DNA of 64,000 bases from Bacilli bacterium (GTDB lineage: Bacteria > Bacillota_I > Bacilli_A > RFN20 > CAG-826). Numbering within the stretch: the first letter of the stretch is position 1; every line of letters starts with the position of its first letter. Below are positions 11,064 through 64,000 of this stretch, in pieces. The stretch covers positions 2,970 through 66,969 of the forward strand of contig JAILIF010000108.1 in assembly GCA_024695405.1 (NCBI GenBank), read 5' to 3'. The translations under genes and the position numbers were made by a program. Under the pieces are notes generated by a model, which made no database searches, was not told where the DNA came from, and saw only the letters and a list, made by a program, of their open reading frames with translations.

Positions 11064-12131
11064 TTAGTTGGCTTCCTTTTTAACTGTTCTTTTAGGTTTA
11101 GATTCCTTATTTTCTTTAGCAGGTTCTTTTGATGGTTCTTTCACTTCTTTTGGCTTTTTAGGAGCTTTAGGAGTTTTAGCATTTGCTGCTGCAAATAAGT
11201 TCATTTGTTCTACTTGCTTTTCTGTAGGCTTGCCAGCAGTTGTTTTCTTACTATAGTCTGATGAGAAAGTATAAGACTCTAATTTCTTTGCTTGTTCTAC
11301 ACTTCTGTTTTCTCTTTCTTCTCTCTTATTAATATCAGAGATATAAATAACGATAGATGATGTTAATAATGAAACAATAATAATTCCATAGAATCCAATG
11401 ATAACTGAAAGGATTCTACCTGTAGTGGTTGTAACAGTAAGATCGCCAAATCCAGTAGTGGTAATTAAAGCGAAACAATACCACCATGCGTCTCCTGCAT
11501 CTTTAATTGAATCCTCGACGTGAGGAAGAATGAATGAAGTAAGTAATAGGATGATAAATAAACCAAAGAAGATATCTAAACCATGAACTCTATTAAGTGC
11601 TTTGCCTAAATCTGTAATAGAGATAACTTTCTTAACAAACATATTAGAAACTAAGTTAGCTAAACCTTTATATAAAACTAAGCATCCTAATATAACGTTT
11701 GTAGCAATATCTGATTCTTGTCCGCTGAACATTAAGAAGATAAATAGGACACAGATAATGTTTTCCATTCCGAAGAATGATTCTGTTCTATTAGATTTTC
11801 TATAAATAATTGCTTTTGCGATATTTGCAAGAACATCCGCAACACAAGAAGCGCCTACAACATATGCCATCTTGCTAGGGTCTGCGTTGAAGATAATCAT
11901 TAAGATTATGATGATGCCGTGTAATGAACCGTGAATTATCGTGTAGAGTAAGGATGATTCATATGCGAAATACTTAATAACAACTAATCCGACTTTAATT
12001 AAGAAGAATACAATCATGACCCACATGATGTAGTCTTGTAAGATTTCAATTTTCAATGTGACGATGAAACCTACGATAACTAGAAGTGATGCTAATACAA
12101 TCTCTAAAATGCCATGTAAATTTTTATTCAT
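11064..12131 (-). CDS. Potassium channel protein (2TM/pore type) with a Lys/Pro-rich cytoplasmic tail
   Basis: Selectivity-filter signature TTTGFGD; several TM helices; about 90 C-terminal residues of KPK/PKxP-rich low-complexity sequence; Shine-Dalgarno AGGAGAA. Confidence 0.8.
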   Translation of the reverse strand: MNKNLHGILEIVLASLLVIVGFIVTLKIEILQDYIMWVMIVFFLIKVGLVVIKYFAYESSLLYTIIHGSLHGIIIILMIIFNADPSKMAYVVGASCVADVLANIAKAIIYRKSNRTESFFGMENIICVLFIFLMFSGQESDIATNVILGCLVLYKGLANLVSNMFVKKVISITDLGKALNRVHGLDIFFGLFIILLLTSFILPHVEDSIKDAGDAWWYCFALITTTGFGDLTVTTTTGRILSVIIGFYGIIIVSLLTSSIVIYISDINKREERENRSVEQAKKLESYTFSSDYSKKTTAGKPTEKQVEQMNLFAAANAKTPKAPKKPKEVKEPSKEPAKENKESKPKRTVKKEAN

Positions 12132-12247
12132 GATGATTCTCCTTGAAGTGGGAAAGTTTTTGAGAAATTGACTATTTTTGTCAACAACTCCCTTATTTTA
12201 ATTGATTTTTGTATAACAACAATTATTTTTTTATAAATTTTAGTGAA

Positions 12248-12283
12248 TTTTTCAAAAATCGACCCATTTAAATAAGTAAGGAG
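12248..12283 (+). promoter_or_regulatory. Repeat family copy A (TTTTTCAAAAA-TCGACCCATTTAAATAAGTAAGGAG): putative -10 plus Shine-Dalgarno module
   Basis: Near-identical to copy B at 12577-12613; related copies at 35604, 43806 and 63902. Confidence 0.45.
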
Positions 12284-12576
12284 TATTTAAAATTTTTTAA
12301 TATACTAACCTATTAAGATTTAAAAATGGTAAAAAAGAGAAGAAAGTCTTCCTACGCGAGAAGATATAGTAAACCTTTATTAAGAGGGAAATTTTATAAA
12401 GTAAGCGATAAAAATGGAGGGCATTATTCGAGGTTATATAAAAAGAATACAAAAGAAAAAAATGAGCTACACGCGCCTTTAACAGCCCAATGTGCTTACT
12501 CACAAAATTATTAAAACAAAATCGTTTGTTACATTCAAGAAAGTATATTTAATATTTTTTTAAAATTTTTGCACAA

Positions 12577-12613
12577 TTTTCAAAAAATCGACCCATTTAA
12601 ATAAGTAAGGGGG
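12577..12613 (+). promoter_or_regulatory. Repeat family copy B
   Basis: TTTTCAAAAAATCGACCCATTTAAATAAGTAAGGGGG; an ATG follows 11 nt later (41-codon ORF 12625-12750). Confidence 0.45.
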
Positions 12614-12890
12614 TTTGTAACCTTATGAACCTTGAGAAACTTCTCTCAGTCCCCGCAATCTCTTTACGAGAAAGGATGTTAAATTTTAGTGGTAGTAATA
12701 CTGTTAAAGTTTGTACTCATCGTAGTTTTGTTGTTAATGATACTGGGTAACTGGTAACTAAAAAAGCCTGGGAGGCATGTCTCCTAGGCCCTAAAGACAA
12801 CTTTATTATACATGCGTGTTTGGCGGAAGGAAAGCACAACCTTCAAGTTGAAGGGGACTGCCTTCGTATTGATAAATAGTGAGGAAAATT

Positions 12891-13358
12891 ATGAAATCAT
12901 ATCAGCAACTTTATAGATACGCTAAACAGCTAGCGTTGAAGTGGAAACATACTGCTTCGAAAATTAAAGAAAAATTATTATTAAAAGGAGCATCTTCTAT
13001 TGAGATAGACAAAATAATTTTTTCTTTAATTAATGATAAAGTCCTAGACGATAACAAATGTTTCGAGCTAGATGTATTTGCTATGGAAGAAAAAAGATAT
13101 GGGTATAAAAGAATAAAAGAATATCTATGTAAGAAGGGATATGGTAGAGAACTCTTAGATAAGTATATTTTTAATAAAGATATAGAAAAAGATAATTGTT
13201 ATTATCACTTTTTTAAAGGAAGCAAAAAATATAAAAACTACAAATATAGTGATGTAGAAAGAGAAAAATTAATTAATTATCTAAAAAGAAATGGGTTTAA
13301 TGATACAATAATAACCGAAGTTATTAAAGTAGGTATTAAATATGAAGATGTTATGTGA
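12891..13358 (+). CDS. recX: Regulatory protein RecX
   Basis: RecX-type helical repeats; ATG at 12891 with GAGGA 7 nt upstream (track start 12879 is a GTG); 155 aa. Confidence 0.65.
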   Translation: MKSYQQLYRYAKQLALKWKHTASKIKEKLLLKGASSIEIDKIIFSLINDKVLDDNKCFELDVFAMEEKRYGYKRIKEYLCKKGYGRELLDKYIFNKDIEKDNCYYHFFKGSKKYKNYKYSDVEREKLINYLKRNGFNDTIITEVIKVGIKYEDVM

Positions 13359-14268
13359 ATACAAAGATGGTGAACACATCACTGGCCAGTTTCTCGTTTC
13401 TAATGTTTCTAAAGGAACAAACGCAAATGGTGGACAATATCTTAATGTAGAACTTAGAGATGCTTCTGCTAGTATGAACGCTAAAAAGTGGGAAGTGGCT
13501 AGTAAAGATGAAGAAATAGTTGTCTCTGGTAATGTAATTTATATTGATGGTGAAGTTTTAAAATATAAAGAATCTCTTCAAATTAAATTATTAAACGTAA
13601 GAGCGGTTGATTTAGATGAAATTGATCCTACTAAATTTTTAAAACAACCCCCAATACCAAAAGAAGAACTCATAAAGAAATTTAATAAATATGTAGATGA
13701 AGTAGAAAACGAAGACTGTAAAAAGATATTGAATTATTTTATTAATAAATATAATAATCAAATTTACGATTATCCGGCCGCTAGCAGCATTCATCATGAA
13801 TATATGAGCGGATTACTCGTTCACTGCACTACAATGGCTGAAATCGCCGAAAAACTATGTGAAATCTATCCTGTTAATAAAGACTTGGTTATAACTTCGG
13901 TATTATTACACGATATTGGCAAGATTACTGAATTAGAAGGACCGATAGTGTATAAATATTCACTTAAAGGAAAACTTATTGGCCATATTTCAATTATGGC
14001 AGCAGAAATTGATGAAGCCGCCAAAGAATTAGGACTTACTAGTGAAACTCCATTATTGTTGCAACATGCAATTTTATCTCATCATGGACAACTAGAATAT
14101 GGTTCTCCAGTTCTACCTGAAACTGCAGAAGCTCTTATGCTTTCTTTAGTAGATAACTTAGATTCTAAAATGGTTATTACATTAAAAGCATTAGAAGAGA
14201 CTAAAGATGGGGAATTCACAAATAAAGTGTATCCTCTAGATGGAAGAACATTTTATAAGCACAAATAA
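13342..14268 (+). CDS. yhaM: 3'-5' exoribonuclease YhaM (OB-fold plus HD domain)
   Basis: N-terminal OB-fold, then an HD domain (HHEYMSGLLVHC...LLHDIGK); 308 aa. Confidence 0.85.
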   Translation: MKMLCEYKDGEHITGQFLVSNVSKGTNANGGQYLNVELRDASASMNAKKWEVASKDEEIVVSGNVIYIDGEVLKYKESLQIKLLNVRAVDLDEIDPTKFLKQPPIPKEELIKKFNKYVDEVENEDCKKILNYFINKYNNQIYDYPAASSIHHEYMSGLLVHCTTMAEIAEKLCEIYPVNKDLVITSVLLHDIGKITELEGPIVYKYSLKGKLIGHISIMAAEIDEAAKELGLTSETPLLLQHAILSHHGQLEYGSPVLPETAEALMLSLVDNLDSKMVITLKALEETKDGEFTNKVYPLDGRTFYKHK

Positions 14269-26546: not shown

Positions 26547-26690
26547 ATAATATATACGCTTCAGGGCAGCGAAAAGCGACCGGCGGTATACCCCGCGAGC
26601 CAAAAATGGCAGGAACTTGTTAGATTCAAGTGGCGACAGTAAAGTCTGGATGAAAGAAGTACTTTTTTAGGCCTTGGGAAAGGTCTATTT
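26547..26690 (+). ncRNA. FMN riboswitch (RFN element)
   Basis: CTTCAGGGCAGCGAAAAGCGACCGGCGGTATACCCCGCGAGCC...GTTAGATTCAAGTGGCGACAGTAAAGTCTGGATGAAAGAAG matches RFN-element conserved blocks. It is followed by a hairpin aggcctt-ggga-aaggtct plus a T-run that covers the GGGAAAGG Shine-Dalgarno sequence. Confidence 0.9.
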
Positions 26691-26693
26691 TTT

Positions 26694-27464
26694 ATGAAAA
26701 AAGAAAGAAGAACGGTCAAAGAATCGATCACAAGAATTACGACCCTTGCCATGCTAGCCGCGTTAGGTTATGTCCTAATGGCATTCGTCAAGTTTCCTTA
26801 TCCACCAGCTCCATGGCTTAAGGTTGAAATCAGTGAGCTCGTTACTATTATTGCTTATGCATTATATGGTTTCCCTGGTGGACTCACTATTGCGTTAATC
26901 AAAACATTGCTTAACTTAGTAACAAACGGGGCATCAGGATTAGGTATTGGTGATATTACCGCTTTTATTACATCCTGCATGTTCTTGTTAGGCTTATTTG
27001 TCACAAGCCATCTTAAATGGTTTAAAAAAGGTCTAAAGTTTAGAATTATTTCTTATGTGGTTATCGGCGCAATTGTAGCGGTGGTTATGACTACATTAAA
27101 TGCTATAGTAATTACTCCAAGTTATTTAACTGTATTTGGTCCTAATCCTCATTTTTCTACATGTTTTGAAGATGGCGCTATTCAAAAAACAATCGCATAT
27201 TTAACTAAGAGCGAAGATCCATCTTCAAGCGTTTTGAACTACATTTGGGTTATTACTTACATATATGGACCATTTAACTTAATGAAAGCAGCGATTTGCT
27301 GTGCGCTCTATGAGTTGTTATTTAATAGATTAATCTTTGTTTTTATGAGAAAATCACCATTTTTCCAAAAATGGTTCGTTGGCAATATATTTACTAAAAA
27401 GGTAGAGGAGCCAAAAGAAGATGATAACAAAGAAATCGTTGAAGCAGAGGAAGAAAAAAACTAG
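26694..27464 (+). CDS. ribU: Riboflavin transporter (ECF S-component RibU/FmnP-like)
   Basis: Polytopic membrane protein directly downstream of the FMN riboswitch; 256 aa with a charged C-terminal tail. Confidence 0.75.
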   Translation: MKKERRTVKESITRITTLAMLAALGYVLMAFVKFPYPPAPWLKVEISELVTIIAYALYGFPGGLTIALIKTLLNLVTNGASGLGIGDITAFITSCMFLLGLFVTSHLKWFKKGLKFRIISYVVIGAIVAVVMTTLNAIVITPSYLTVFGPNPHFSTCFEDGAIQKTIAYLTKSEDPSSSVLNYIWVITYIYGPFNLMKAAICCALYELLFNRLIFVFMRKSPFFQKWFVGNIFTKKVEEPKEDDNKEIVEAEEEKN

Positions 27465-35581: not shown

Positions 35582-35603
35582 TTGCAAAAAATTTTAAAAA
35601 AAT

Positions 35604-35635
35604 TAAAAAAATGACCCATTTAAATAAGTAAGAGG
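35604..35635 (+). promoter_or_regulatory. Repeat family copy C (recA leader)
   Basis: AAAAAAATGACCCATTTAAATAAGTAAGAGG, 7 nt before the recA ATG. Confidence 0.45.
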
Positions 35636-35642
35636 TATTTTT

Positions 35643-36649: not shown

Positions 36650-36684
36650 AACCTCCTAGAAAATATTAATTAGGAGGTTTTTTC
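36650..36684 (+). terminator. Rho-independent terminator after recA
   Basis: acctcct-loop-aggaggt followed by TTTTTT. Confidence 0.65.
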
Positions 36685-43781: not shown

Positions 43782-43805
43782 AAAAGTTAAGAAATTTTAG
43801 CAAAT

Positions 43806-43841
43806 TTTTCAAAAAATGGCCCTCTATATAAGTATAGGGGG
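43806..43841 (+). promoter_or_regulatory. Repeat family copy D (ABC transporter leader)
   Basis: TTTTTCAAAAAATGGCCCTCTATATAAGTATAGGGGG. The ccctctata/tataggggg arms can pair with one G-U and would bury the Shine-Dalgarno sequence. Confidence 0.45.
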
Positions 43842-43848
43842 TTTTATT

Positions 43849-45897
43849 ATGAGTTTAATACAAGTCTTAAACCTGACTAAGACCTATAAAATATCTGGAA
43901 AGAAAGTAGACGTCTTGAAAGATATCAATTTAACTCTGCCAGAAAGTGGTTTAGTCGTAATTTTAGGAAAATCTGGTTCAGGTAAGTCTACATTGCTAAA
44001 TATAGTGGGAGGAATTGATAATTCCACGTCGGGAGCCGTAATTTTTTCTTCAATGAAGAAACACAGTAAAAATTCTAATTTTGAGAAGAGTTTTATATTT
44101 CAACATTATCATTTGTTAGAAAATCAGACTGCTTTATATAACATTATGCTTCCAGCTCTAATTCGAGGGTATGACAAAAAGTTTGCCGAAACCCAATCTA
44201 AGGAATTAATAAAACTTTTCTCACTGGATGAAAGCGTTGTTAATAAAGTGGTTAGGTTTTTATCAGGCGGAGAAAAAGAAAGAATTGCAATCTTACGTTC
44301 TTTAATAACAAATCCAAGATTAATATTAGCTGATGAGCCAACAGGAGCACTTGATAAAGATAACGCAATTAAGACGATGAATATTCTTAAAAACGCGAGT
44401 AAGAAAAGGCTTGTTCTTTTAGTCACACATAATAGAGATTTAGCAAAGCAATATGCTGATAGAATTATTACTCTTTTAGATGGGAAAATTATTGATGATC
44501 AGACATACAAAAATAATAAAGAAGAAGTGTACATAGATAGTATTCAAAAAAGACGCAAAAACCATTGGTCAATAAACATCATTAACCACAATTTTAAAAA
44601 AAGAATTAAAAGGAATATTGTTTCGATAATCGGAATGACAATTTCTTTAGTTTTCTGCTATTTGCTATTTGGGTTTTCTACACATTCAAATGATGCAATT
44701 AATAAGGTTTCTACAAAACATTTTGATTATGGGACTGGTACTATAAGCAAAGAATTTAGAACTGAATCCGATTCATCTATAACTTTGGTAAAAACATTAA
44801 GACCAGAAGAAAACGAATTAGATGATATAAAAACCAAATTTCCAATGTTTGAATTTATGGCAAATTATGACGCTATTTTTAACTCAGGAGAATTATATAT
44901 TGGAAATGAAGTGAACAAAGAAATAAGGAATTCTTTTATTTATGATTTTACTGATAAAAGCTTCGATAAGAATTTAATAGTTTCTGGTGCAATCAATAAT
45001 GAGTGTTCTTGGAATGATATTGTGGTTAATGAAAAAGCATTTAATATAATCCAAAATAACGATATTCATTATAAATTTTCTTATGAAAATAAAATTGAGC
45101 AGACGAATTCTTCTTTTATAGTTGATTATTTTGATGTAGAAGAAAAACTGAATATTGTTGCAGTTGTGGATGAATTAGATTTTTTGTCGGTTCCTAAAAT
45201 TTATTTTAACTATCAAGAAATAGATGAAATATTCGAAAACAAAGAATTAGAAAACCTATCTGATAAGTCAGGAAAAGAAATAAATTGGAAACAATACATT
45301 ATGGAAGCTAATTCCTATGATGATATTACTTCATATTCTTTGAGATGCTTTTTGGTGGATATTTCAAAAAAAGAAAAAGTCGATGAGCTATTAAAATATT
45401 TATCAAATGAAATAAAACTAACTAACGATAGCTTAACAATTAAAGAAGCTCTAGCGTCATTAACGTTGGCCGCTACTGTAGGGCTTGATGTATTTTTGAT
45501 TATTGCTCTAGTCGGTAGCGTGCTTATTTTGGGAGTATTTTCATTTTCTGCCTATAATGACGATAAGAAGGAATCATCTATCTTAAGTTGTTTAGGAGCT
45601 AAAGATAGTGAAGTAGTCGGGATTTTTACAAGTGAGAGCCTGATAGTTGTATTTTTGGCTTTCCTTTTTTCAACTGTATTTTCTTGGATCCTTCAAAAGC
45701 CAATTAATTTACTTTTAGATGCTTTATTAGATGTTCCAAATCTTATCGATATTCCAATTAAATCTTTTTTAGGAATTAAAGGATTGCTTCCTCTTGCGGT
45801 TTTATCAATTTCAATAATAGTGGCTTTAGCTTTTACTTCAATTCCTATTTTTATTAATAAAAAGATTTCTCTTAAAAAGGAGCTTACTGACTTATGA
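43849..45897 (+). CDS. ABC transporter, fused ATP-binding and FtsX-like permease (MacB-type)
   Basis: ATG 43849 is 8 nt after the AGGGGG Shine-Dalgarno sequence. N-terminal ATPase (GKSGSGKST, LSGGEKERIAILR, LILADEPTGALD); TM1, a roughly 290-aa extracytoplasmic domain, then 3 C-terminal TM helices. Confidence 0.8.
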   Translation: MSLIQVLNLTKTYKISGKKVDVLKDINLTLPESGLVVILGKSGSGKSTLLNIVGGIDNSTSGAVIFSSMKKHSKNSNFEKSFIFQHYHLLENQTALYNIMLPALIRGYDKKFAETQSKELIKLFSLDESVVNKVVRFLSGGEKERIAILRSLITNPRLILADEPTGALDKDNAIKTMNILKNASKKRLVLLVTHNRDLAKQYADRIITLLDGKIIDDQTYKNNKEEVYIDSIQKRRKNHWSINIINHNFKKRIKRNIVSIIGMTISLVFCYLLFGFSTHSNDAINKVSTKHFDYGTGTISKEFRTESDSSITLVKTLRPEENELDDIKTKFPMFEFMANYDAIFNSGELYIGNEVNKEIRNSFIYDFTDKSFDKNLIVSGAINNECSWNDIVVNEKAFNIIQNNDIHYKFSYENKIEQTNSSFIVDYFDVEEKLNIVAVVDELDFLSVPKIYFNYQEIDEIFENKELENLSDKSGKEINWKQYIMEANSYDDITSYSLRCFLVDISKKEKVDELLKYLSNEIKLTNDSLTIKEALASLTLAATVGLDVFLIIALVGSVLILGVFSFSAYNDDKKESSILSCLGAKDSEVVGIFTSESLIVVFLAFLFSTVFSWILQKPINLLLDALLDVPNLIDIPIKSFLGIKGLLPLAVLSISIIVALAFTSIPIFINKKISLKKELTDL

Positions 45898-48689
45898 TCG
45901 ATATTAAAGATTTAGGAATAAAATTTGAAGATAAAGTAGTATTAGATAACGTAAATATAAAGTTTCCAAGAAGTGGATTGATTTGCATTTGTGGCGAATC
46001 TGGTAGTGGAAAAACATCTTTAGTGAATGCAATTTCTTCTTTAATAGATTTCAAAGGTAGCATTAGTTTTGATGGATTAAGAATTGAAGAATTAAATGAC
46101 AAAGAAGGTGCAAATTTTAGAATTAAAAATATTGGATTTATCTTCCAAGACTTTAAGTTATTTGATAATCAGACTGTAGAGAAAAATGTAACTTTTCCTC
46201 TCAGCGTGCTTTCAAATTGTTCTGATGTTAAAAAAACACACAAGTGTAATGAATTACTTGCTCTTTGTAATTTAGAAAACTATAACAAACGAATTTGTAA
46301 AAATCTTTCAGGCGGAGAAAAACAAAGAGTAGCCATTTGTAGAGCTCTTATTAATAACCCAAAGCTAATTATCGCTGATGAACCAACAGGCTCTTTAGAC
46401 GAAAATAATGGTGAAGAAATATTGGTTTTATTAAAGAAATTTTCAACAAAATCACTTGTTTTAATGGTTACACATGACTTAGACCTAGCTAGAAAATACG
46501 CCGATAAGATTGTGTTTATCAAAAATAAACAATTAGTTGTGGAAGAGAATAATAAAATTATTGAAGATTATAAACCATTAATTATTTCTAACAAAGAAAA
46601 GCAAAAGAAGAAATCTTCTGTACCTTTTATGTTTGCGATTAATCACGCTAAGCAAAGTATGAAAGCAAAAAAGATTAGAAGCGTTCTAAGTACCATGTTT
46701 ATGTCTATGGGACTTATGGGAATTGGCTTATCAATATCTTTTTCTAATTCAATTTCAAACGACTTAAAACGCTCTTATAGCAATCTTATTGAAACAGCGT
46801 CTATTTCTATTTGTAAACAGCAAGATAAAACAGAAAGAATTAAAAATGTTACCTATGACGATACTAAATATTTATTAGATACCTATGATGAAGATAATCA
46901 ATATGAATGTGGTGTTGGTTATTTGAATAACTTCGAAGAAATGTTTAAGGATTGTAATATGTTCTATCTAGAAAGTGGGTCTAAAACATATTTTATTGAT
47001 GATCTTTCGATTAGACACATTAATGACGCTGTGACTGTAAAAGTTAACGATAATTCTTTCTTGCCTGCACCTTTAAAAAAGATGGAAGATGATGAAATAT
47101 GTTTAGGATTAACTATTTATCAAATTAGAAGTATCTGTATGGTTTTTGGTATTGAAAAAAGTGTTAATTCATTTTCTTCGTATTTAGAAAGTAATGATGT
47201 AAAGGTAGTAATTGAAGCGGGTAATGTAGATTGGGAATATTCAGATCAGCAAGTATTCACTTTAGTTGGGTTTGCCTTATCTACTGAGCCATATATTGCC
47301 CATACAAATAGAATGTTTAACAAAATCGTTTTGGAAGATAATATGAGGTTTCCATCAACTGATAGTCACGATTTAAAGGAATTTCCGTGGGTATTAAATA
47401 AGATAACCTACATTTCTACTGAAAATAATTATGATTTTTTAAAGTTTGCAAGAGAGAAAGAACTTACAGATAAATACATGTTTGAAGTTTGCGATAAGAA
47501 CTTATTTGTGAATCAACTATTAGATAAAGAAGCGTGCGACATAAATTATCTAATTCCCTACTATGCGCCTAAGACTCAATTAACAGATAAAGAAATCGAA
47601 TATATTAGTTCTGTTAGTGAAGATTTAAATAATCCGATTGTTTATAACAGTGGTGGTTATGTGAATTATCCAAATAATCTTATTTCTGGATTTGCTAATA
47701 GAACATATTTCTCTTTGTCAGAATATTCTCTACTTGAAACAACCGAAAATAATGCCTCAATTGAATTTGGCACTAATGAAAAGGAAGATTTGAAGCCCGG
47801 AGTACTTTATTCAAATTTTTCGAATAATTTCGCTAATCCTGTTAAGTTTGATTCGAATTTAACAAATATATCTTCAGGTAGAGAACCAATTGATTTGGAC
47901 GAGATTGTTGTTTCATCAGGTTTATTGGAAAACCTTAAAACAGAATATACGAACTCAGAGTTTCTCTATTTATCTACTGCGATAAAAGAAATAAATAAAC
48001 GAATAGGTATTTTTAATAGGGAATATGTAACAACAAAACTAAAAATTGTTGGCGTTGTCGAAAATGAGAAAAACTGTATTTACCATAATGCTTATTGGAC
48101 ACAAGATTATTTCTTATTACAAGATGGCTTGAAAGCAGAAAGCTTAGTTCCAACGTCTATTTCATTTTCTATAGGAGAAGATATTGATATAGATAGTTTA
48201 ATCGCGAAACTTAAAAGAGCGTTTCCTCAATACGAAATTGTTAATCCTCTTTTAGAGATAAATAAAAGTGTAGATCAATTATGCAACGCAATTTCTATTT
48301 TTATATTATGCATTTCGTTTGTCTCGTTAGTTATTTCTTTAATTTTGCTTTCTTCATGTACTTATCTTCATATTCAAGACATAAAAAAAGAAATTGCATT
48401 AGCAAGATGTATAGGAATTAATGTGGATGAATCGATGAAATTTTTATACAGCTATACCAGTTATTCTTCGTTATTTGCGTTAATTGTTGCGTGTGCCGAA
48501 TTAACAATGGTTAATTTAGCAATATTAAAACTTTCTTCTGATGTTTTATCTCTTCCTTTTAAATTCTCTGCTAGTTTTTTAGCATATGTAGTAATGTCTG
48601 TTGCATGTGTTTTAATATGTTTAGTTTCTTCTTGGATTAGTGCTAAACACATTAGAAAAATTAAACCAATTGATTGCCTTAAAATATAA
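45894..48689 (+). CDS. ABC transporter, fused ATP-binding and FtsX-like permease with a large extracytoplasmic domain (931 aa)
   Basis: ATPase (GESGSGKTS, LSGGEKQRVAICR, LIIADEPTGSLD); TM1 near aa 255; a roughly 540-aa extracellular domain; 3 C-terminal TM helices; start overlaps the upstream gene (ATGA). Confidence 0.8.
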   Translation: MIDIKDLGIKFEDKVVLDNVNIKFPRSGLICICGESGSGKTSLVNAISSLIDFKGSISFDGLRIEELNDKEGANFRIKNIGFIFQDFKLFDNQTVEKNVTFPLSVLSNCSDVKKTHKCNELLALCNLENYNKRICKNLSGGEKQRVAICRALINNPKLIIADEPTGSLDENNGEEILVLLKKFSTKSLVLMVTHDLDLARKYADKIVFIKNKQLVVEENNKIIEDYKPLIISNKEKQKKKSSVPFMFAINHAKQSMKAKKIRSVLSTMFMSMGLMGIGLSISFSNSISNDLKRSYSNLIETASISICKQQDKTERIKNVTYDDTKYLLDTYDEDNQYECGVGYLNNFEEMFKDCNMFYLESGSKTYFIDDLSIRHINDAVTVKVNDNSFLPAPLKKMEDDEICLGLTIYQIRSICMVFGIEKSVNSFSSYLESNDVKVVIEAGNVDWEYSDQQVFTLVGFALSTEPYIAHTNRMFNKIVLEDNMRFPSTDSHDLKEFPWVLNKITYISTENNYDFLKFAREKELTDKYMFEVCDKNLFVNQLLDKEACDINYLIPYYAPKTQLTDKEIEYISSVSEDLNNPIVYNSGGYVNYPNNLISGFANRTYFSLSEYSLLETTENNASIEFGTNEKEDLKPGVLYSNFSNNFANPVKFDSNLTNISSGREPIDLDEIVVSSGLLENLKTEYTNSEFLYLSTAIKEINKRIGIFNREYVTTKLKIVGVVENEKNCIYHNAYWTQDYFLLQDGLKAESLVPTSISFSIGEDIDIDSLIAKLKRAFPQYEIVNPLLEINKSVDQLCNAISIFILCISFVSLVISLILLSSCTYLHIQDIKKEIALARCIGINVDESMKFLYSYTSYSSLFALIVACAELTMVNLAILKLSSDVLSLPFKFSASFLAYVVMSVACVLICLVSSWISAKHIRKIKPIDCLKI

Positions 48690-55563: not shown

Positions 55564-55669
55564 GGAAGGATTAATAGTCCTTCTTTTTAACAATATGCAA
55601 AATTTGCATTTTTTATTGTGAGAAATATTTTAGATTAATATAATAATATTATTGGCGAGGGAATTTATA

Positions 55670-56863
55670 ATGAATTTAAAAGAAACACGCAAAAAATGCA
55701 AATTAACTCAAGAAGAAGCATCTAAAATTGTTGGCGTTCCACTCAGAACATATGTTCAATATGAAGGCGACGAAACAAAAGCAGATACTTTAAAACTTGA
55801 AAGAATGATTGAAAGATTAGAAGAATACGCAAGCAAAGATACTTCTATTCTTAAAGACAAAGTCTTATTAATTACTGGTGGTACAGGTTCATTCGGCCAT
55901 GCAGTTGTTGATAGATTTCTAGATACTGAAATTAAAGAAATCAGAATTCTTTCTCGTGACGAAAAGAAACAAGACGACATGAGAAAGTACTATAACAATG
56001 AGAAATTAAAATTCTACATTGGTGATATTAGAAACTATGATTCTATTGTTGATGCTTTTAAAGGCGTTGACTATGTTTTCTCCGCAGCTGCTTTAAAGCA
56101 AGTTCCATCTTGTGAATTCTATCCAATGGAAGCTGTAAGAACTAACGTCATCGGTAGTGATAATGTAATTACTGCTTGCGTTAGAAATGGTGTTAAAAAA
56201 GCTATCTTCTTATCTACTGATAAAGCAGCATATCCAATTAACGCTATGGGTATTTCTAAAGCTTTAATGGAGAAGAATGTTATTGCTAGAAGTAGACAAC
56301 TTTTACCAGGAGATACAGTTTTATGTTTAACTCGTTATGGTAATGTTATGGCTTCTAGAGGTAGTGTTATCCCTCTTTTCTTAAATCAAATTCATGATGG
56401 TAAGCCAATTACTATTACTAATCCAGAAATGACTAGATTCATGATGACTCTTGATGACGCTGTTGATTTAGTCTTATATGCTTTTGAAAATGGTGAACAA
56501 GGTGATTTATTCGTTCAAAAGGCACCTGCTGCAACAATTGAAACATTAGCTCAAGCAGTTATCGAATTAACAAATAGTAAAACAGGTATTGATTATATCG
56601 GTACTAGACATGGTGAAAAACTCTACGAAACTTTAGTCACTCAAGAAGAAATGATTAGAGCAGTTGATTGTGGCAATTTCTATAGAATTGTCGCTGATAA
56701 TAGAGATTTAAACTACGACAAATACTTCTCAAAAGGTAACAAAAAATTAAACTTCTCAGAATCTTATACATCACATAATACTGGTAGACTTGATGTTGAG
56801 GGTATGAAAAAACTTCTCAAAAAGTTAGAATTATTTGGTGGGGAAGTTAGACAACATGATTAA
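55670..56863 (+). CDS. fnlA: UDP-N-acetylglucosamine 4,6-dehydratase/5-epimerase (FnlA/CapE) with N-terminal XRE-type HTH
   Basis: ATG 55670 is 8 nt after GAGGG (the track TTG at 55652 is unlikely). Residues 1-50 read LKETRKKCKLTQEEASKIVGVPLRTYVQYEG, an XRE helix-turn-helix. The remainder aligns with CapE from KVLLITGGTGSFG onward. Confidence 0.8.
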   Translation: MNLKETRKKCKLTQEEASKIVGVPLRTYVQYEGDETKADTLKLERMIERLEEYASKDTSILKDKVLLITGGTGSFGHAVVDRFLDTEIKEIRILSRDEKKQDDMRKYYNNEKLKFYIGDIRNYDSIVDAFKGVDYVFSAAALKQVPSCEFYPMEAVRTNVIGSDNVITACVRNGVKKAIFLSTDKAAYPINAMGISKALMEKNVIARSRQLLPGDTVLCLTRYGNVMASRGSVIPLFLNQIHDGKPITITNPEMTRFMMTLDDAVDLVLYAFENGEQGDLFVQKAPAATIETLAQAVIELTNSKTGIDYIGTRHGEKLYETLVTQEEMIRAVDCGNFYRIVADNRDLNYDKYFSKGNKKLNFSESYTSHNTGRLDVEGMKKLLKKLELFGGEVRQHD

Positions 56864-63345: not shown

Positions 63346-63386
63346 ACTTAATAAATAGGTTAAAAAAGATTATAATTGATACCGTT

Positions 63387-63893
63387 ATGAATAAATTAAT
63401 TGTTTTATCGGGCGTTCCAGGTAGTGGAAAAAGTTATATTTCTTTATTAATAAAAGATAGGATGAAAAACGGACACGTTTACATCGTTAGTAGTGATACT
63501 TTAAGAAAACAAATATGTGGTAGCCAACAGTGCTTTTCTCATGAAGAACTCATGTGGAATATGTATTATGAAATGGCTAAAGCCTATTCTTTGGATAAAG
63601 ACGGTATCGTTATTTTAGATAGTACAAATTCTTTAAGAATTTATAGAATTGATAAAGTAAAACCTCTTAAAGAATTATTTAATGAAGTAGATTTAGTTAC
63701 TTTTGAATTAGATAAATTAACTGTTATGCGTCAAAACATGGAAAGAGATTTTCCTATACCAAGTGACGCTTTAGAAAGATTAATTGATGAATACGAGCAT
63801 GTTAACGGAGAAGATGAAAACTTCTTTGATAACATTTACCATGTAAATAAACACGATTTAACTTCTATAATTGATAGTATTTTGAAAAAATAA
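63387..63893 (+). CDS. P-loop NTPase, predicted small kinase (AAA_33/zeta-like family)
   Basis: Walker A LSGVPGSGKSY; 168 aa. Confidence 0.6.
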   Translation: MNKLIVLSGVPGSGKSYISLLIKDRMKNGHVYIVSSDTLRKQICGSQQCFSHEELMWNMYYEMAKAYSLDKDGIVILDSTNSLRIYRIDKVKPLKELFNEVDLVTFELDKLTVMRQNMERDFPIPSDALERLIDEYEHVNGEDENFFDNIYHVNKHDLTSIIDSILKK

Positions 63894-63901
63894 TTAAAAA
63901 A

Positions 63902-63947
63902 TTTTTCAATTTTCTGAAAACACCCCCTCTATATAATTGAGGAGGTT
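63902..63947 (+). promoter_or_regulatory. Repeat family copy E
   Basis: TTTTTCAATTTTCTGAAAACACCCCCTCTATATAATTGAGGAGG with a TATAAT box. An ATG at 63954 opens an ORF that runs off the window (MNGYKIIKFRDNEF...). Confidence 0.45.
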
Positions 63948-64000
63948 TTTTCTATGAATGGTTATAAAATAATAAAATTTAGAGATAATGAATTTTAGCT

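Follow-up and report, generated by a model that had tools for sequence, protein, structure and literature searches.

A dispersed family of upstream elements at recA, recX and an ABC exporter in an uncultured Bacilli genome, and its possible role as a Shine-Dalgarno-occluding RNA module

The window analysed in this study is a 64,000-nt chromosomal segment (positions 2,970 to 66,969 of contig JAILIF010000108.1, assembly GCA_024695405.1) from the AT-rich metagenome-assembled genome (MAG) of an uncultured gut-type Bacilli bacterium, with about 31% G+C and nearly all genes on the forward strand; its RNA genes, as found with Rfam 15, are a class B RNase P RNA, an FMN riboswitch and one tRNA. Dispersed through this window are five copies of an upstream element of about 50 nt, designated A to E and all on the forward strand, which we tentatively interpret as an RNA module hiding the Shine-Dalgarno (SD) sequence of the gene behind it. 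Copy A (12224-12283, core 12248-12283) lies next to a divergent K-channel gene, and copy B (12553-12624, core 12577-12613) is located between it and a recX-like gene (12891-13358) that forms an operon with yhaM (13342-14268). The 61-nt spacer between cinA, which encodes a CinA/PncC-domain protein, and recA is occupied by copy C (35586-35642, core 35604-35636), with its SD 6-7 nt 5' of the recA ATG (35643). Copy D (43792-43848) is found between fhs and the first (ATG 43849) of two tandem MacB-like genes (43849-48689), each a fused ATPase-permease (ABC_tran plus FtsX) according to the Pfam annotation of their orthologues, and copy E (63898-63953) lies 3' of an AAA-kinase gene. The genes upstream of C, D and E are co-directional, with spacers of 60-67 nt. 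An earlier note on this DNA, made from the sequence alone, read the family as a -10-like promoter box combined with an SD placed 7-11 nt before a start codon in each copy. For copy A this spacing does not hold, as no ATG, GTG or TTG occurs within 20 nt of its AAGGAG and the next open reading frame (ORF), at 12326, starts 42 nt off without an SD of its own; in copy B the SD lies 11 nt 5' of an ATG opening a 41-aa ORF. Copy E does precede an ORF at the window end (ATG 63954), but that ORF has just 14 codons (63954-63998).

The 20-mer GACCCATTTAAATAAGTAAG is identical in copies A, B and C, and their family ranks first among the dispersed repeats of the window, the other listed repeats being protein-motif similarities. 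The near-identity of A and B was confirmed: their similarity spans 77 nt (12224-12300 versus 12553-12629) at 78%, and in the core they differ only by one additional A in the A-run and by the last SD bases. Copies D (GGCCCTCTATATAAGTATAGGGGG) and E (CCCCCTCTATATAATTGAGGAGG) are diverged family members and have CCCTCTATATAA in common, which is missing from the orthologues of D. An alignment of the five window copies with ten elements from related genomes (alignment A1) was searched with nhmmer over about 190 kb and returned only the family sites, with E-values of 7e-11 to 5e-4, the next match lying above 0.2. When the profile was built from the relatives only, the window copies were recovered with E-values of 3e-7 (B), 8e-7 (C), 1e-5 (D), 3e-5 (A) and, marginally, 0.03 (E), the next match being at 0.6, and a profile of the ABC elements only recovered B, E, A and C above noise; recovery of the family with such leave-group-out profiles is thus not circular. 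No sixth copy was found by profile search in the 64-kb window, and none in about 120 kb of related loci beyond the orthologous sites. A true family is thus present, with five members and no more in the window, whose sequences and positions agree with those given in the earlier note, including the assignment of the diverged D and E; as that note also stated, profile and repeat searches identify a discrete, conserved family that exceeds generic A/T spacer.

Syntenic loci of relatives were gathered via RecA, YhaM and kinase homologues, and comparison of the orthologous intergenic regions, which the earlier note had proposed, found the same architecture before the same genes, namely recA, recX and the MacB-like ABC pair, in relatives with 69-92% protein identity. 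The elements precede recA in loci L012, L013, L015 and L035, the ABC genes in L012, L013 and L015, and recX in L016, L018, L019 and L020; at the L035 recA locus (RecA 78%) the architecture is partly kept. It opens 5' with T-run/A-run blocks, one or two in number (AAATTTKG ... CAAAAAAT); a C-rich arm comes next, then 8-14 nt of A/T only, the SD, a U-rich spacer and the start codon, as exemplified by the ABC element of L012 (aaaaatGCCTCCTTAAATATAGTAAGGAGGtttttt) and the recX elements of L016 (AGCCTCTTTAAATAAATAGGAGGC) and L020 (AATAATCCTTATTAATAAAGTAGAGGATTATT). Copies A, B and C are 83-86% identical to one another and 70-77% identical to their own orthologues, and the recX element of L020 is closer to the recA elements of L013 and L015 (76%) than to other recX elements (69-72%). 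To account for such within-genome likeness, the copies must have been duplicated, homogenised by gene conversion or read by one trans-acting factor.

Significantly stable pairing between the C-rich arm and the SD is predicted in D, in E, in 3/3 ABC orthologues and in 3/4 recX orthologues (z -2.3 to -4.6), fold stability being expressed as z against dinucleotide shuffles. In D the hairpin (43818-43843) has 11 pairs around a loop of 4 nt, with UUUUAUUAU next to it on the 3' side, and buries the entire SD at -15.2 kcal/mol (z -3.1; 0/200 shuffles reach it), and that of E (63916-63952) sequesters the SD at -14.3 kcal/mol (z -3.0) and is followed by a U-run. The SD-occluding inverted repeat claimed for D and E is real and statistically stable, but in E it has another register than was described, pairing CCUC/GAGG, ACC/GGU and GAAAA/UUUUC and not CCCTCTATA/TATAGGGGG. 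Among the relatives, z ranges from -2.7 to -4.6 for the ABC orthologues and from -2.3 to -3.4 for the recX elements of L016, L019 and L020, and the folding energies group by gene, with -13.5 to -15 kcal/mol for ABC, -9.8 to -11.4 for recX and -3.3 to -5.6 for recA elements. Several members have long loops of 7-14 nt, and in the folded RNA a helix between A-run and U-run is frequent. The arms have changed in a compensatory manner, reading CCCUCUAUA/UAUAGGGGG in D, CCUCCUUA/UAAGGAGG in L012, GCCUCU/AGGAGGC in L016 and L019, and AAUAAUCC/GGAUUAUU in L020. Most members contain G-U pairs; a palindrome in double-stranded DNA could not accommodate these, so the helix is strand-specific. Among about 60 gene starts of the window, an SD hairpin was found only at D, where it is strongest, and at the FMN-riboswitch terminator; such hairpins are not a general habit of this genome. 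As a separate observation, the first ABC gene starts with TTG in L012 (18580), L013 (14953) and L015 (9912) and with ATG in the window, and in L013 and L015 this start codon is drawn into an extended A-run:U-run helix (CCAAAAA/UUUUUGG).

Several observations weigh against reading the element as an SD-occluding hairpin. Fold prediction for each copy, as suggested in the earlier note, gave stable structures for D and E but weak or none for the other three: copy A has no hairpin (-1.5 kcal/mol), copy B a weak one (12590-12615, -6.7 kcal/mol, z +0.5), and copy C (z -0.2) a weak A-run:U-run helix with 2 G-C pairs. A, B, C and the entire recA group show at best weak folding (z +1.5 to -2.1), so the hairpin reading rests there on family membership and not on the structure of these members themselves. 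An SD more stably paired than in shuffles was not found in A, B, C, the recA elements of L012 and L013, L035 or L018, and the recX element of L018 lacks the anti-SD arm altogether. The AGGAG is not at SD distance in A (42 nt from the ATG) and L035 (16 nt), and no U-run follows the L016 hairpin. A hairpin alone explains neither the conservation of the upstream A/T blocks (AAATTTTG ... CAAAAAAT) nor the AT-rich loop that A, B and C have in identical form. Covariation does speak for pairing of the arms, with a caveat: the 4-bp core helix on alignment A1 is paired in 83% of cells versus 68% in shuffles (0/500 reach it), the covariation score is 0.567 versus 0.292 in shuffles (0/500) and at most 0.23 with a slid partner, and 15 cells versus 7.1 expected are changed on both sides, all of these measures being inflated because the sequences are related and the structure tested came out of that very alignment.

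The proposed -10-like box did not withstand examination. The consensus scan, which called for a TTGACA-like and a TATAAT-like hexamer separated by 16-18 nt and, in the -10, for A at position 2 and T at position 6, found no sigma-70-type promoter on the forward strand in or beside any of the five copies, nor in L016, and the sole such match, TTAACA-18-AAAAAT in L018, uses the A-run as -10. The spacing from the upstream A/T blocks to the AT box and SD block varies among recA orthologues from 5 to 14 nt, which is not tolerable for a two-block promoter spanning them, and with its -10 in the AT box, transcription would begin within or after the SD. The compensatory changes in turn imply that transcripts must contain the whole hairpin with both arms. 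Manual placements (-10 in the AT box, -10 at the AAAAAT A-run, -35 at TTTKG) gave no constant spacing across orthologues, and by-eye comparison with sigma-54, SigB, SigH and ECF patterns found none that fits. Copy D contains ATATAAGTA, the yeast mitochondrial nonamer; a phage- or mitochondrial-type promoter was rejected given the ordinary bacterial chromosome context (class B RNase P, syntenic housekeeping genes), in which nothing suggests a single-subunit polymerase.

Scans for LexA and ComX operators and for known RNA families were likewise negative. The LexA Cheo box (CGAAC-N4-GTTCG) had 5 matches in the window at up to 2 mismatches versus 8 expected, none of them at recA, recX or any element; the cin-box (TACGAATA) had 2, both on the reverse strand inside genes and at chance level, and none at any copy. 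B, C and E each have a match resembling the CodY box (AATTTTCWGAAAATT) at 2 mismatches, and D has two at 3, within a window total of 22 versus 23.6 expected by chance. Rfam 15 gave no match to the elements, and only noise with E-values above 1 in 12100-12950. In a genome collection that does not include the source species, the exact 18-mer had 11 scattered single matches in unrelated phyla, approximately the chance number; it was not found in viral contigs or phage collections, where a structural-pattern scan gave generic palindromes only. A metagenome scan with YhaM returned two short contigs that do not include the region upstream of recX. A dispersed mobile repeat of the MITE, REP or BOX-like kind was dismissed, as there are five copies in 64 kb and A, C and D stand at orthologous positions. 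Three side observations belong here. A perfect Cheo-box core (GAAC-N4-GTTC) occurs in AGAACATATGTTCA (55745-55758) close to the 5' end of ORF 55652-56863, a sugar epimerase-type gene by synteny, the window count of Cheo-type matches being at chance. In the spacer between the divergent K-channel and recX genes, a block AAATTGACTATTTTTGTMAACAACTCC..ATTTTAAT is kept between window positions 12160-12215 and L018 1725-1780, and presumably represents the divergent promoters. Before the kinase gene (ATG 63387) there is no SD; a perfect TATAAT stops 10 nt short of its start codon (63360-63389), an arrangement suggesting that transcripts of this organism can be leaderless or very short.

Terminator likeness is evident in part of the family. 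A simple terminator scan flagged D and the ABC element of L012, and E together with the other ABC orthologues has the stem plus U-run by folding; by scan and folds, no terminator-grade stem-loop was found in A, B or C, and L018 has no stem. Co-directional genes precede C, D and E as well as the orthologous ABC and recA elements, whereas the recX elements of the window, L016 and L018 follow the divergent K-channel gene. The L016 hairpin without U-run indicates that termination is not the common function, and together with the divergent context of recX it leaves SD occlusion as what the structured members have in common. The recA terminator (36650-36683, forward strand), with AACCTCCTA-N10-TTAGGAGGTT followed by T6 at -11.5 kcal/mol and no gene start behind it, is built from CCTCC/GGAGG arms like those of the element family and attracts sub-threshold profile matches, and recA orthologues have unrelated GC hairpins at this position; it demonstrates use of the element's hairpin style as a terminator in this genome. 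Elsewhere in the window, the FMN riboswitch terminator (26553-26696; AGGCCTTGGGAAAGGTCT plus T6) ends at the ATG at 26694, and the sole SD-like bases lie within its stem. This is a combined terminator and sequestor of known type beside a start codon in the same genome.

The histories of the copies differ. In alignment A2, the spacer from the K-channel gene to copy A runs collinearly with the spacers that separate the K-channel gene from recX in L018 and L016, and copy A is thus the positional orthologue of the relatives' recX element, the ancestral one in the window. The 607 nt between its SD (12283) and the recX ATG (12891) are missing from relatives, in which the recX-yhaM operon begins directly after the element, and A has no start codon because this insertion cut it off from recX. 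The insertion holds a 62-aa ORF, copy B, a 41-aa orphan ORF and a hairpin-rich stretch. The very basic 62-aa ORF (12326-12514, forward strand) is a truncated homologue of the N-terminal part of an uncharacterised basic family of about 120-150 aa; its residues 2-46 share 49-68% identity with P0361-P0363, P0366 also belongs to the family, and one 907-aa relative carries 14 repeats of part of the sequence. No Pfam, PHROG, plasmid or phage match was obtained for it. Copy B, a local 77-nt duplicate of A, is followed by the 41-aa ORF (12625-12750, forward strand), for which no homologues were detected in family libraries. That the 41-aa ORF or the region before recX could be the lost C-terminal half of the 62-aa gene was rejected, the sole alignment having an E-value of 0.42 in a 900-nt search space. 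The stretch at 12751-12890, between the 41-aa ORF and recX, contains GCCTGGGAG-GCAT-GTCTCCTAGGC and three mutually exclusive GGAAGG/CCTTC pairings; it resembles an alternatively folding leader, gave no match in Rfam and is missing from relatives.

Copy E is a lineage-specific extra copy, most like D. It was not found in the kinase-uvrA spacer of four relatives in which uvrA follows the kinase gene, and the window departs from that arrangement right after the kinase stop codon. A regulatory link of recA, recX and uvrA was accordingly discarded, since the relatives' kinase-uvrA spacers lack the element and E is a window-specific addition. The spacer is itself conserved in relatives (...ACGCCATAGAGTGTTGT...TTGTTATTATACAAATACTATG; L023 10505-10621, L026 10505-10597, L027 1174-1268) and has no SD, and their uvrA mRNA may be leaderless or short-leadered with a conserved upstream motif.

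We favour, with confidence somewhat short of even, a cis-acting RNA module whose effect would be to occlude the SD, which in several members also resembles a terminator and whose A-rich tail is a possible standby site. An unstructured A/U-rich stretch, formed by the T-run/A-run blocks and ending in CAAAAAAT, would precede a stem-loop whose 5' arm would be the C-rich anti-SD and whose 3' arm would be the gene's own SD, with a U-run leading into the start codon and able to pair with the A-run. For transcripts arriving from upstream, the hairpin would act as a partial intrinsic terminator or insulator; in transcripts that continue, the SD would be hidden, and in relatives the TTG start codon too. 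Translation of RecX and the ABC exporter would thus be set low and that of RecA higher, and the A-rich tail might serve as a ribosome standby site.

The main alternative, though rather unlikely, is that the family is a DNA-level signal, i.e. a non-canonical promoter, a promoter with operator or the site of a hypothetical trans-acting regulator, which would make recA and recX the centre of a small LexA-independent recombination/repair regulon and the AGGAG part of the recognised sequence or of the initial transcribed region, not an SD only. recA and recX are indeed a functionally coherent pair, both without a LexA box, but the strongest members precede an ABC exporter, others precede two tiny ORFs, and uvrA (in relatives), recU and nth have no element. 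The shared 20-mer of A, B and C, their greater resemblance to one another than to orthologues and the affinity of the L020 recX element to recA elements would suit a common reader, as would the blocks AAATTTKG and AAAAAATCR-AAAAAT, kept in recA orthologues down to 78% RecA identity; against this, the spacing of the conserved blocks varies by up to 9 nt, orthologues keep arm complementarity and not the AT-rich core, the CodY-like matches are at chance, and the 18-mer occurs in no other species representative beyond the chance matches. While the AGGAG is kept in A and L035 off SD distance, and the short divergent spacer before recX in L016 and L018 must hold a promoter (the A-run of L018 being the -10 of the sole match), the window copies and L016 leave the sigma-70 consensus unmatched. 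A combined version, which we consider improbable, holds that the A/T blocks and AT-rich core are the target of a trans factor, protein or small RNA, steering both termination and SD access; it would serve a LexA-independent response of recA and recX (and the exporter) in reduced-genome Bacilli, its recognition sequence co-evolving with the factor between species.

Also improbable in our judgement is that these are ordinary intrinsic terminators of the upstream genes, which in a compact AT-rich genome use the next gene's SD as G-rich arm with no designed downstream effect, the family likeness then being architectural and compositional (A-tract, GC clamp, AT loop, U-tract). An upstream A-tract with a downstream U-tract is the classic bidirectional-terminator layout, D and the L012 ABC element pass the terminator scan, C, D and E stand in short spacers after co-directional genes, and the recA terminator has the same arms without a gene start. 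This explanation has to contend with the recX elements of L016, L018 and the window, where the gene next to them is divergent and no terminator is needed, with L016 without a U-run, and with A, B, C and the recA group, which lack a terminator-grade stem; moreover, the profile misses the other terminators of the window, which makes the family more specific than any terminator, and relatives retain the element before the same three genes. Least credible, and very unlikely, is a copy-and-paste expression cassette spreading with new small genes, in which C and D would recently have given rise to A/B and E, and near-identity would reflect duplication or gene conversion and not function. Copy B, a 77-nt duplicate lying with a truncated gene inside an insertion missing from relatives, and copy E, missing from the four kinase-uvrA spacers and sharing CCCTCTATATAA with D, fit such a history, yet A as positional orthologue of the recX element and the orthologous conservation of C and D make the family old and only B and E new; terminal repeats, target duplications and a transposase are lacking, only five copies occur in 64 kb, and there are none in phage collections.

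If the hairpin reading is true, about 50 bases combine upstream insulation, a ribosome-binding site and a gene-specific throttle, weak for recA and strong for recX and the exporter, which would help expression prediction and gene-start annotation in MAGs. If a trans-acting factor reads the element, a recombination regulon would exist in a lineage whose recA, recX and uvrA lack LexA boxes. On either reading, copies of the element were duplicated beside newly inserted small ORFs in the window.

Among known systems, the SOS, cin-box and CodY regulons of Firmicutes share with this family a common motif before recA and a recombination gene, and the T-run/A-run of B, C and E is CodY-like, but neither the GAAC-N4-GTTC of the SOS regulon nor the TACGAATA of the ComX regulon is present at any copy. 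In E. coli, a terminator hairpin between recA and recX keeps recX expression low. A hairpin likewise lies directly upstream of recX, the gene of a RecA inhibitor, in the present lineage, although the window recX is 23 kb from recA, is in an operon with yhaM, and the hairpin includes the SD. Intrinsic terminators, including partial and intra-operon ones, resemble the element in the A-tract, G+C-clamped stem, short AT loop and U-tract; unlike them, the 3' arm of the element is the next gene's SD with a start codon 6-11 nt past the stem, some elements have no U-run (L016) or no real stem (A, C, L018), and the recX copies come after a divergent gene. Ribosome standby, shown in E. coli and MS2 and S1-dependent, uses an unstructured 5' tail in front of a ribosome-binding site that is itself folded (Sterk, Romilly and Wagner 2018, PMC5934652), to which the conserved single-stranded A/U-rich stretch directly 5' of the SD-burying hairpin would correspond by pure analogy. 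The element differs from SD-sequestering stem-loops such as ROSE/fourU thermometers and riboswitch sequestors in having no sensor domain, fourU/ROSE signature or Rfam match and in being flanked by an A-run and a U-run. It is like them in that an anti-SD pairs with the SD a few nt before the start, in its gene-dependent stability, and in arm complementarity kept through G-U pairs and compensatory changes; the module would be a lineage-specific variant of the known SD-hiding hairpin and not clearly a new regulatory system.

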